Shown here: positions 56,196-63,044 of the stretch, one piece after another
Numbering within the stretch: position 1 is the first letter of the stretch
How the letters are laid out: every line of letters begins with the position of its first letter
Source of the DNA: Candidatus Nomurabacteria bacterium
GTDB lineage: Bacteria; Patescibacteriota; Minisyncoccia; Phycocordibacterales; SBAW01
Length of the DNA stretch: 64,000 bases
Direction of reading: 5' to 3'
Assembly (NCBI GenBank): GCA_020854065.1
Contig: JADZGF010000005.1
Coordinates: forward strand, 8,925-72,924
Translations under genes and position numbers: made by a program
Notes under the pieces: model-generated
Seen by the model: the letters and a program-made list of their open reading frames with translations, nothing else
Told to the model about the DNA's origin: nothing
The model's database searches: none

Positions 56196-59100
56196 ATGCG
56201 CTCACAAAAATATTTCTCTCGTTATCGTAAGCCCCTCACCGAGACCCCTTCGCTCGTTGCTGCCCAGACCGACTCCTATCAGCATCTCCTCGAGCGTGAC
56301 CTTAAAGAGACCTTTAAGGAGTTCACTCCTATTAAGGACTACAGCGGCAAAAAGTTTGACCTCGAGTTTTTGAAAATCGAGCTCGGCGAGCCTAAATACG
56401 ACGAGCACTATGCCAAGGCGCAGAAATTGACGCTTGATATTCCTGTACGCGCAACGGTACGACTCAAGAACAAAGCGTTGAATGAAGAGAAGGAGCAGGA
56501 GATCTTCCTCGCGGACCTTCCGCTTATGACGAGCCACGGCACCTTCGTGATCAACGGCGTTGAGCGCGTTATTGTTCCGCAGTTGGCACGTTCCTACGGT
56601 GTCTTCTTCACCGCCGAGGAGGCAAAAGGCAAGCGCCACTTTGGTGCCAAAATCATTCCTGCACGCGGCGCATGGATTGAAATGGAGGTTGAGGCTTCCG
56701 GCGACATTGCGGTTCGTATTGATCGCAAGCGCAAATTCCCTGCAACATCTCTCTTGCGCGTACTTGGCGCAGCATACGACAGCGACCTTAAATCGCTCTT
56801 TGCAAACTCTCCTATCGCTAAGAAGTGGATTGAGGAGGCGCTTGAGCGTGATCCTGCTAAGTCTGTAGACGAGGCATACATCGAAATTCACAAGCGTCTC
56901 CGTGATGGCGACCTTGCAACTGCACATAACGCACGTGAGTACATCAACTCAATCTTTAGCGAAGAGCGCTATGACCTCTCGCGTGTTGGCCGCTACCGCT
57001 TTAACCAGCGCTTCGCTCGCTCGCTCGATGAGAAGGAGCTTACCCGCAAGACCTTGAGCTTGGATGACGTAGTCACCGTTATACAGAAGGTGCTTGAACT
57101 CGAGAACGACCCAGAGGCGATGGAGGATAACATCGATCACCTTGGTTCTCGTCGTGTCCGCTACGTCGGTGAGATGCTCCAGCAGCGTCTCCGTGTTGGC
57201 CTCACGCACATGAAGCGCAACATTCAGGACCGCATGTCGACCATTGATGCCGAGGCAACCATGCCACAGCAGTTCGTGAACCCACGTCCGCTTCAGGCAC
57301 GCATCAAAGAATTTTTCACTACCAACCAGCTTTCGCAGTTTGCGCAGCAAACGAACGTGCTTGAAGAGCTTGAGCACCTCCGCACACTCTCCGCACTCGG
57401 TCCCGGCGGTCTTACTCGCGAGCGTGCAGGCTTCGAGGTGCGCGACGTGCACCCATCGCACTACGGACGTCTGTGCCCAATTCAAACTCCTGAAGGCCCT
57501 AACATCGGTCTTATTCTTCGTCTCACGCAATATGCCCGTCTCAACGAGTTCGGCATGATCGAAACGCCATATGCCAAGGTTAAAAATGGTGTTGTACAAG
57601 ACGAGATTGTCTACCTCAACGCAGCAGAAGAAGAAGGCGTTGCAATTGCACACGGCGCCACGCAGGTTGCCGAGAATGGCAAGATTGTTGATGAAATCGT
57701 CGAGGCTCGCCTTGGTGGCGAACCAGTCCGTACCCCTCGCGAGGAACTCTCTTATATAGACGTATCCCCAGAGCAGCCGTTCTCCATCGCTACTTCGATG
57801 ATTCCGTTCCTCGAGCACGATGACGCCAACCGCTCTCTCATGGGTTCGAACATGCAGAAGCAGGCAACGCCCTGCATCATTCCTGAAGCGCCGCTTGTTG
57901 CAACCGGTATGGAAGCACGTGCAGCGCGGGACACGGGCCGCCTTATCCTCGCGAAAGAGGCAGGCACCGTTACCCATGTTGATGGTCGCGTGATCAAAGT
58001 GAAAAATGAGAAGGGGAAAGAGGTATCGTATCCGCTCATCAACTTTGTTCGCACCAACGGCTTTACTGCACTCCACCAGCGCCCTTCGATTGAACTCGGG
58101 GCAAAGGTTAAGAAGGGTGATCTTCTTGCCGATGTTTCTACAACCGACGGCGGTCAGCTCGCACTTGGTCAGAACGCGCTTGTCGCCTTCATGACCTGGT
58201 CCGGTGCAAACTACGAGGACGCCATCATTATCTCTGAGCGTCTCGTGAAGGATGCAAAATTCTCCTCTATTCATATTGAGGAGTTTGTCTGCAACGTACG
58301 CGATACAAAACTTGGTGCTGAGGAAACTACCCACGACATTCCAAACGTAAGCGAAGTAAAACTCCGCAACCTCGATGAGGACGGTGTTGTTCGTCCTGGT
58401 TCTGAAGTACGTCCTGGTGACATCTTGGTGGGCAAAATCACACCAAAAGGTGAGACACAGCTCACTCCTGAGGAACGCCTCCTCCGCTCTATCTTCGGTG
58501 ACAAAGCACGCGATGTGAAAGACTCTTCGCTTCGCATGGAAAACGGCAAGCGTGGTCGTGTGATCGGCGTCAAAGTATTTAGCCGCGAGCAAGGCCATCA
58601 TCTCGAGAGCGGTATCATCAAGCGCATCCATATTGAGGTTGCACAGTTGCGTGCAGTATCGGTCGGCGACAAGCTCGCAGGTCGTCACGGCAACAAGGGT
58701 GTAATTTCCCGCATTCTTCCTGAGGAGGACATGCCATACATGGAGGATGGTCGCCCAGTCGATGTGATCCTTACACCACTTGGCGTGCCAAGCCGTATGA
58801 ACTTGGGCCAGATTCTCGAGCTTCACTTGGGTCTTGCTGCCAACTCCCTTAACTACCAAGCAATCTGCCCACCATTCTCTGGCGCAACTGAGACTGAGAT
58901 CCGCGAGGAACTTCAGTCGGCAGGGTTTGCACCATCCGGCAAAATGAAACTCTTCGATGGTCGCACCGGCGACGCATTTGAGCAGGATATTGCCGTGGGG
59001 TACATGTACATCCTCAAGCTCCATCACATGGTGGAGGACAAGATCCACATGCGCTCAATCGGGCCGTACTCGCTCATTACGCAGCAGCCACTTGGTGGTA

Positions 59101-62100: not shown

Positions 62101-63044
62101 CTGCCTGCTACGGCATCGACTTGGGTACACAGCGTTTGGTTAACCTCGGTGAAGCAGTCGGCACCGTTGCCGCGCAAGCTATCGGCGAGCCAGGCACCCA
62201 GCTCACTATGAACGTGAAGCACGCCGGTGGTGCAGCATCTGCAGAAGGTGACGTAACGCATGGTCTGCCACGCGTTGAAGAAATCTTCGAGCGCCGCGCA
62301 CCACGCAACCCTGCAGTCGTTGCTTCAGTCTCGGGTGAGGTTGTTGAAATCAAAGACGACGGCAAAGAAAAGATCATTGTGGTTGCTCCTGACATCGAAC
62401 ACAAAGGCAAAGGCAAGAAAGACATGATCGAGTACGATGCGCACATCCGCCGCGTACCAACCGTTAAGGTGGGGGACACGATCACGAAGGGTCAACTCCT
62501 CACTGACGGCTCTGCTGATCTCCAGGATCTCTTCAAGCATGCAGGCAAAGAGAAGACGCAGGAGTACATCATGTCCGAGGTCGTGAAGATCTACGAGCTC
62601 CAGGGTGCTTCGATCTCGATCAAGCACGTTGAAGTTATCGTTCGCCAGATGTTTAGCCGTATGAAGGTAACTGCATCCGGTGGTACTGAACTCTCAGTTG
62701 GTGATGTCCTTCCACAGGCAGACTTCGAGTTGGTGAATGAGGCAGCTACTTCTGCAGGTGGTGAACCAGCAAAAGCAGAAGGTCTCGTCATGGGTATTCT
62801 CGATGTATCGCTCTCGCGCCCATCCTTCCTTTCTGCAGCATCGTTCCAGAACACCACTCGTATGCTCATCAAGGCAGCACTCTACGGTGCGATGGATAAA
62901 CTTGAGGGTCTTAAAGAGAACGTGATCATCGGTCGCCTTATCCCTGCAGGTACTGGCTTTAAGGGATCTCCAAAACAGGAGATGATCCAAAAGGCTGTAC
63001 CGCCGCGGCATGAGCAGGTCGAAGATCGCATCCGCACTTCCTAA
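56196..63044 (+). CDS. rpoBC: DNA-directed RNA polymerase beta-beta' fusion (rpoB-rpoC fused in one 2282 aa ORF)
   Basis: The N-terminal roughly 1048 aa are colinear with RpoB and end with ...[22 protein letters not shown]...[17 protein letters not shown]. A short linker ([19 protein letters not shown]) continues in frame into RpoC ([36 protein letters not shown]...CYCGKY...[16 protein letters not shown]). No stop or frameshift occurs at the junction (about 59330-59410). Confidence 0.85.
   Translation: [2282 protein letters not shown]

Follow-up and report, generated by a model that had tools for sequence, protein, structure and literature searches.

Fusion of rpoB and rpoC, which encode the β and β′ subunits of RNA polymerase (RNAP), has been described in Helicobacteraceae, where it is regarded as a rare event that happened once and characterizes the family (PMC1557499). 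Wolbachia is cited together with Helicobacteraceae as the known natural cases (PMC7483510). Engineered β–β′ fusions in Escherichia coli (Severinov et al. 1997) sustain growth of that organism with unchanged transcription properties (PMC3993855), and an active M. bovis rpoB-rpoC fusion with a 10-amino-acid linker has also been reported (PMC3993855; bioRxiv 10.1101/2021.11.05.467461). Here we describe a fused rpoB-rpoC gene on a 64,000-nucleotide (nt) stretch of DNA (positions 8,925 to 72,924 of contig JADZGF010000005.1, assembly GCA_020854065.1; the whole stretch is called the window below). The host is a patescibacterium of the Paceibacteria, near the Taylor-, Kaiser-, and Zambryskibacteria, in which the two genes are unfused. 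We put at roughly 0.9 the probability that the single 253-kDa β–β′ polypeptide represents a genuine natural gene fusion. The β–β′ fusion is as a kind already known; what is new is its presence throughout a large clade of tiny, uncultured Patescibacteria, with probable repeated origin nearby and elsewhere. No description of an rpoB/rpoC fusion in Patescibacteria, the candidate phyla radiation (CPR), or Parcubacteria was found in the full-text literature, coverage of which is incomplete, so that an earlier mention may exist; the only CPR paper retrieved uses the word "fused" of ComEC.

A single open reading frame encodes complete β and β′ subunits

The fused gene occupies positions 56196 to 63044 of the forward strand and consists of 2282 codons plus a stop codon, with an ATG start and a product of 252.9 kDa. 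Judged from base composition, a frame of 2282 codons would be free of stops by chance with a probability of about 1e-48, and the second-longest stop-free stretch in the window spans 1051 amino acids. The product contains Pfam RNA_pol_Rpb2 domains 1, 2, 3, 45, 6, and 7 (amino acids 20 to 1048), followed by RNA_pol_Rpb1 domains 1 to 5 (amino acids 1067 to 2162). The β moiety (amino acids 1 to 1044; 56196 to 59327, forward strand) is a minimal form of RpoB with full-length matches to the Rpb2_1 to Rpb2_7 series and to the NCBIfam profile PRK00405/NF001616, which aligns to amino acids 4 to 1047 (model positions 3 to 1095 of 1096; 1438 bits versus a cutoff of 896); the RpoB profile TIGR02013 scored 1418.8 bits versus a cutoff of 801. 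The β′ moiety (amino acids 1067 to 2282; 59394 to 63041, forward strand) matches Rpb1_1 to Rpb1_5 and the full length of TIGR02386 (amino acids 1071 to 2257, model positions 2 to 1144 of 1147; 1455 bits versus a cutoff of 963.5). Between them lies a 22-amino-acid tether (amino acids 1045 to 1066; 59328 to 59393, forward strand), bracketed by alignments to Protein Data Bank chains and by motif anchors. A complete β is thus followed by a complete β′ in a single uninterrupted frame, the two being joined at their native termini. Conserved active-site-proximal β motifs are present at amino acids 537 and 824, and the β′ motifs are intact: the zinc ribbon CYCGK…CEKC (amino acid 1121), the NADFDGD catalytic loop (1554), the second zinc site (1961), and the trigger loop QLTMNVKH (2002). 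No second rpoB or rpoC was found within the 64-kb window, and the fused gene is very probably the only source of β and β′ in the cell.

With RpoB and RpoC of E. coli K-12 (locus L081) as the alignment reference, identity is 52% for β and 47% for β′. The β moiety lacks E. coli residues 215 to 250 and 257 to 332 (SI1), 938 to 1037 (SI2), and 1128 to 1181, and the β′ moiety lacks residues 705 to 719 as well as 943 to 1082 and 1086 to 1132 (SI3). About 41 extra β′ residues follow the position of E. coli β′ 146 to 158 (amino acids 1198 to 1250 of the open reading frame [ORF]; approximately 59787 to 59945), and these are helical in a poor AlphaFold model. We take this site to be one at which other lineages have β′ N-terminal insertions. 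Judged by these alignments, the enzyme is close to a minimal bacterial RNAP. A naturally tethered, insertion-free polymerase of this size (β of 1044 and β′ of 1216 amino acids) may be attractive for recombinant expression and for structural study of CPR transcription.

Comparison with known fused and unfused polymerases

The RpoBC proteins of Helicobacter and Wolinella (NF007172/PRK09603) have the same organization as the window protein, with β followed by β′ in a single ORF and the natural termini joined. The alignment of the window protein to this fused model crosses the junction without a break (hmmscan), and the spacer between the same two anchors is 27 amino acids in Helicobacter muridarum (locus L063) versus 22 amino acids here. 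However, the window protein scored only 2085 bits versus the NF007172 cutoff of 5372. The absence of the proteobacterial insertions makes it approximately 570 amino acids shorter than Helicobacter RpoBC, and the linkers are unrelated. In our trees it branches within the Patescibacteria, apart from the H. muridarum protein, which indicates an independent origin. The distribution also differs, in that the Helicobacteraceae show one family-marking fusion whereas the fused lineages of Patescibacteria are interspersed with unfused ones. Wolbachia RpoBC (NF011417/PRK14844) is likewise a natural single-polypeptide β–β′, from a host-associated organism with a reduced genome. However, Wolbachia belongs to another phylum and has a much larger protein (model length, 2839), and the window protein scored 1974 bits versus a cutoff of 4632 for this type.

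The engineered tethered β–β′ proteins share the topology seen here, in which a short flexible linker runs from the β C terminus to the β′ N terminus. They are artificial, whereas the linker described here is natural, longer (19 to 26 amino acids), partly conserved, and apparently derived from native tails. The nearest unfused comparators are sister Patescibacteria (Zambryski-, Taylor-, Kaiser-, and Nomurabacteria), whose β subunits are 72 to 75% identical to that of the window and which have the same minimal architecture and dnaG downstream; they differ in having two genes, with a stop codon and 18 to 118 nt between them.

A preliminary description of this DNA had reported one uninterrupted 2282-codon frame at 56196 to 63044, and this was borne out, with the junction peptides that it quoted found and a spacer of 22 amino acids. 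Its further proposals also agree with our results: that this is a new case, independent of Helicobacter and Wolbachia (the protein falls far below both fused-type cutoffs and branches among unfused Patescibacteria), and that both moieties are without the lineage-specific insertions of E. coli (SI1, SI2, and SI3 are all absent).

Features of the linker and junction

The anchors for measuring the spacer were …GLALDV, the final conserved motif of β, and the first motif conserved in β′; by these anchors the spacer comprises 22 amino acids (59328 to 59393). Solved RNAP β chains align up to approximately amino acids 1047 to 1059, and β′ chains begin at approximately amino acids 1061 to 1068, corresponding to β′ residues 4 to 15. 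Among 83 sequences of the fused clade to which the window protein belongs (clade A), the linker is 19 to 26 amino acids long, with a mode of 21, and varies by whole codons. Its ends are conserved (ELM[RK]…[RK]KTPGAE), and its core is variable and rich in Gly, Ala, Arg, Ser, and Pro. The mean conservation of the linker, expressed as majority-residue frequency, is 0.66, compared with 0.875 over the entire protein; just 3% of the 22-amino-acid segments of the protein score lower. This pattern fits a translated flexible tether rather than random read-through.

Evidence for a natural fusion and alternative explanations

Several points limit the case for a natural fusion that works as a single chain and for any benefit from it. 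Support for the junction comes from comparison of assemblies and not from reads. An AlphaFold2 model of the junction fragment (amino acids 880 to 1330, from a 16-sequence alignment) was too poor to use (mean predicted local distance difference test score of 55 and predicted template modeling score of 0.40), and so what can be said about the geometry of the tether comes from structures in the literature and from the short spacers found elsewhere. The window covers 64 kb only, and a divergent second rpoB or rpoC could lie elsewhere in the genome. Lastly, each state, fused or unfused, is stable in the sampled clades, and near-neutral fixation fits this as well as adaptation does.

It is conceivable that the gene is fused and the enzyme is not, either through cleavage of the linker or through production of a separate β′ by internal initiation at Met1047; we regard this as improbable. 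An in-frame ATG at this position (in the motif ELM) is kept in 83% of the clade A sequences, and the flexible, Arg- and Lys-rich linker is possibly accessible to proteases. However, no convincing Shine-Dalgarno sequence precedes Met1047, as the only Shine-Dalgarno-like tetramers in 59301 to 59400 are AGGA (59338, just past the ATG) and GAGG (59385, near the end of the linker), and Thr, Ala, or Val replaces the Met in the subclade of P0077 to P0082. Against cleavage, other fused lineages have spacers of 3 to 4 amino acids, which leave no space for a processing site, and the Helicobacter fusion is reportedly intact in the purified enzyme. We therefore favor an active enzyme in which the 253-kDa chain probably stays uncleaved.

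An error of assembly or consensus could also merge two adjacent genes through a miscalled stop codon or an indel. The fusion was initially seen in a single window, and errors in metagenome-assembled genomes do happen; one relative (P0409, at locus L084) has an evident frameshift inside β′. However, the longest homopolymer in the junction DNA is at most 3 nt, and both alternative frames there are full of stops. The same architecture was recovered in more than 80 independent 90%-identity clusters, at 75 to 86% identity and from NCBI, JGI, ENA, and Logan sources, with the same in-frame junction and conserved linker motif; the in-frame junction is also present in the independent DNA loci L083 (NCBI) and L084 (JGI). 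In a whole-protein search, all 120 of the clusters listed have both Rpb2 and Rpb1 domains, with identity ranging from 86% to 52%, and nearly all of these listed matches are 2133 to 2307 amino acids long, the shorter ones being truncated by contig ends. Since a whole-protein search favors long hits, the search was repeated with β alone. This β-only search of a 5.8-billion-protein collection, which was a test for close unfused β rather than a census and which appears to omit hits of approximately twice the query length, returned no complete unfused β at more than 75% identity. All of the hits above 75% are fragments cut at contig ends, of which P0408, P0409, and P0087 still reach into β′, and the nearest complete unfused β subunits are at 75% identity or below.

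The clade A gene of P0409 is called as two overlapping ORFs of 1166 and 1105 amino acids (L084, 8400 to 8560). It was considered as an alternative split site and rejected, since the tail of the first ORF is an out-of-frame reading of normal β′, which marks a frameshift. This frameshift, an assembly indel or a pseudogene, lies approximately 100 amino acids into β′ and leaves the β–β′ junction intact.

The preliminary description had named an artificial fusion as the outcome that would overturn its reading, and had suggested relatives as a place to look for the same fusion. Comparison excludes the artificial scenario, with dozens of independent assemblies carrying the same in-frame junction and linker motif, and the fusion is clade-wide in relatives, probably with several origins. 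An artifact in the window is in our estimate extremely improbable; the same fusion is inherited in independently sequenced relatives, and on this comparison of sequences we consider it real and fixed in clade A. It is just as hard to credit that this gene is redundant or in decay while functional separate rpoB and rpoC genes lie in the unsampled remainder of the genome, given strong purifying selection (the mean majority-residue frequency of 0.875 across 83 sequences), the intactness of every catalytic motif, the conserved housekeeping neighborhood rpsP-KH-trmD-rpoBC-dnaG-rpoD, and the lack in the databases searched of any unfused β close to clade A.

Distribution and phylogeny of the fusion in Patescibacteria

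The source labels of the fused proteins name no more than broad groups (Candidatus Paceibacterota, Patescibacteria group, Minisyncoccia). The closest unfused β subunits belong to Candidatus Taylorbacteria (approximately 73% identity), Kaiserbacteria (72%), and Zambryskibacteria. A set of 1.84 billion 50%-identity representatives was searched with β alone, so that the ranking was blind to fusion state; the search gave one fused Patescibacteria group entry (P0110, 2246 amino acids, 57% identity), followed directly by the unfused P0123 (Candidatus Spechtbacteria, 1074 amino acids), P0124, P0125, and P0126. A motif scan of contigs was swamped by the conserved motifs and yielded mostly unrelated phyla with rpoB and rpoC in the same frame, together with unfused comparators and the Helicobacter locus; only nine of its loci (L001 to L009) grouped with the Patescibacteria in trees, and none of them came from clade A.

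Neighbor-joining trees with 100 bootstraps were built from β plus β′ (2168 columns) and from β alone (59 taxa, 1038 columns). Clade A is monophyletic (100%), has the unfused P0414 as its sister (86%), and is nested among unfused Taylor-, Kaiser-, Zambryski-, and Nomurabacteria-like lineages. A second fused lineage, P0088 (20 member sequences), is the sister of unfused Zambryskibacteria (97 to 100%). All 120 of the nearest β relatives of the unfused locus L001 are themselves unfused, being 1043 to 1108 amino acids long or shorter fragments. In a third fused group, clade B (100%), to which L007 belongs, the linker is 12 amino acids long (EPVYxxxxxRKD); the neighbors of this group in the tree are L008 and unfused lineages resembling Spechtbacteria. 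P0089, whose spacer measures 40 amino acids, and P0090 are fused singletons that branch apart. The trees are neighbor joining only, some deep nodes have 53 to 86% support, and the singleton fusions rest on assemblies.

Clades A and B, P0089, and P0090 have linkers of unrelated sequence, which agrees with independent fusions, and independent fusions are preferred over one fusion followed by many fissions because the unfused state is the majority, or background, state. The most parsimonious reading of the trees is at least three well-sampled independent fusions in Patescibacteria (clade A, clade B, and P0088) plus the two singletons. One feature sits badly with strictly independent fusions: the linker end of clade A (RKTPGAEAS, amino acids 1058 to 1066 in the window) and that of the fused P0088 (YKNPGAETD) have the motif PGAE in common, a motif without counterpart where β′ starts in the unfused, Zambryskibacteria-like sister group of P0088 (MRTRTTDSN). 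Convergence might explain this, as might a motif of the ancestral β′ head that the Zambryskibacteria have lost, or a fusion already present in the ancestor and later split in some lineages.

These results broaden the known distribution of the fusion and challenge the view of it as a rare event. The fused genes, whose sequences are public, are annotated just as "subunit beta′"; this may confuse single-copy-marker counts and operon analyses, rpoB and rpoC being common markers for phylogeny and binning. Fusion state may also serve as a cheap character for subdividing the Paceibacteria, to be used with care because it is recurrent.

Fusions beyond Patescibacteria

Eight more full-length β–β′ proteins, of 2309 to 2812 amino acids, were present in the set of the 150 closest 50%-identity representatives (P0133 [2522 amino acids], P0207, P0237, P0239, P0241 [six cluster members], P0255, P0258, and P0265). 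A ninth from outside the Patescibacteria group, P0173, is cut by a contig end. These proteins are scattered in the tree, P0133, for example, with the FCB group and others with or near Proteobacteria. Their spacers measure 3 to 28 amino acids, with only 3 to 4 amino acids in P0258 and P0241; across the other fused lineages as a whole, spacers of 3 to 40 amino acids are tolerated. Their occurrence indicates that rpoB–rpoC fusion is more common than the "Helicobacteraceae and Wolbachia" of the literature implies.

The JGI protein P0237 (2309 amino acids) is divergent. Its β part begins approximately 340 residues in, behind an N-terminal extension, and its β′ N terminus apparently lacks the CxCGK…CxxC zinc ribbon.

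A possible route to the fusion and its consequences

In the unfused relatives, the distance from the rpoB stop codon to the rpoC ATG is 18 nt in L001 and 39 nt in L086, both in frame, and 118 nt in L085. The junction of L001 reads CAA TAA TTT AAT TAA AAA AAT ACT ATG, and its fused sister P0088 is approximately 40 nt shorter there. The start of the clade A linker (…LDV-ELM[R/K]GG) resembles the β tail of the unfused P0491 (…LDV-DLMKGGTGN and the stop codon; in full, …LDVDLMKGGTGN and the stop codon). At its other end the linker ([R/K]KTPGAExS-DF) can be aligned with unfused β′ heads (M-R-T-R-T-T-D-S-N-DF in L001 and M-L-K-P-… in L085), and the former initiator Met of rpoC would have stood nine residues before the DF anchor. 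Met1047 was considered as a relic of the rpoC start and dropped, as the site nine residues before DF is the one that appears to align with the Met of L001 and L003 (M-R-T… versus R-K-T…).

The 22-amino-acid spacer is about as long as the two free tails of E. coli together (5 plus 15 amino acids). By this comparison, the linker would not be an added element but would correspond in length to what were once the C-terminal tail of β and the N-terminal head of β′. In the simplest history, the stop codon of rpoB, the few intergenic nucleotides, and the start codon of rpoC were probably lost together, through either a small deletion or a point change with read-through, and the old tail and head would then have become a flexible tether of approximately 21 amino acids. 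The C terminus of β and the N terminus of β′ are near each other in published RNAP structures. Tolerance of spacers of 3 to 4 amino acids elsewhere likewise indicates that the two anchor points lie next to each other in the polymerase. Because the two termini adjoin in the assembled enzyme, the tether would leave its structure undisturbed, and the polymerase would work as any α2·ββ′·σ enzyme does, without insertions and with β and β′ permanently joined.

Such a linkage would enforce 1:1 synthesis and would let β′ dock on β in cis. A gain in assembly or stoichiometry is conceivable but, like any selective advantage, speculative, and a nearly neutral fusion would fit equally well. A broader proposal is that recurrent, convergent β–β′ fusion is an adaptation of ultrasmall bacteria with reduced genomes, with three to five or more origins in Paceibacteria and more in other lineages, and with low RNAP copy number, weak translational coupling, or missing assembly helpers as the driver favoring 1:1 synthesis and assembly in cis. 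We consider this proposal doubtful. If it were true, the fusion could no longer be called a "rare genetic event" and would be the sign of a specific constraint in cell biology, not of chance. The understanding of how RNAP works is unchanged by these findings. The fusion is mechanistically unsurprising.

Gene neighborhood and upstream region

The gene order in the window is rpsP (53388), a KH-domain protein gene (53887), a Nudix gene (54572), trmD (55003), rpoBC, and dnaG (63457 on). The upstream neighbor trmD (55003 to 55650, forward strand, from the ORF list) is found in the same order in L082, L083, L084, and L086. Downstream, the 5′ part of the primase gene dnaG (63457 to 64000, forward strand) runs off the window and was identified from its similarity to the L083 DnaG protein (tblastn; 62% identity over 180 amino acids). 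The classical rplKAJL-rpoBC linkage is absent; instead, fused and unfused relatives alike have the order rpsP-KH-(Nudix)-trmD-rpoB(C)-dnaG-rpoD. As dnaG also lies 3′ of the unfused rpoC in L001 to L003 and L086, the neighborhood is independent of the fusion. In L082 and L083, rpoD follows dnaG downstream of rpoBC, and for this reason the cognate σ factor gene of the window organism very probably lies a few kilobases downstream. The genes for the large RNAP subunits thus adjoin those for primase and the primary σ factor.

A putative σ70-type promoter, TTGACA and TATACT separated by 16 nt, is located at 55947 to 55974 on the forward strand (an 11/12 match in the scan), and both hexamers are invariant upstream of rpoBC in the clade A relatives L083 and L084. 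It would be followed by a probable 5′ leader of approximately 215 nt (55975 to 56195, forward strand), in which a three-way alignment reveals the conserved blocks TGAAACCAA and CTGTGCATAAnGTnCTTG; the transcript boundaries are predicted. The leader gave no Rfam match, and its folding energy is ordinary (z = −1.0). Exact matches to TTGACA-N15-18-TATACT occur three times in the window versus 0.01 expected, at 39037 to 39065 (forward strand), 42833 to 42860 (reverse strand), and 55947 to 55974 (forward strand). This suggests that TATACT may be a preferred −10 element in this organism.

In the unfused relative L086, the trmD product (3231 to 4169, 312 amino acids) matches tRNA_m1G_MT, GIY-YIG, and again tRNA_m1G_MT in succession, and a GIY-YIG nuclease domain seems to have been inserted inside this TrmD.

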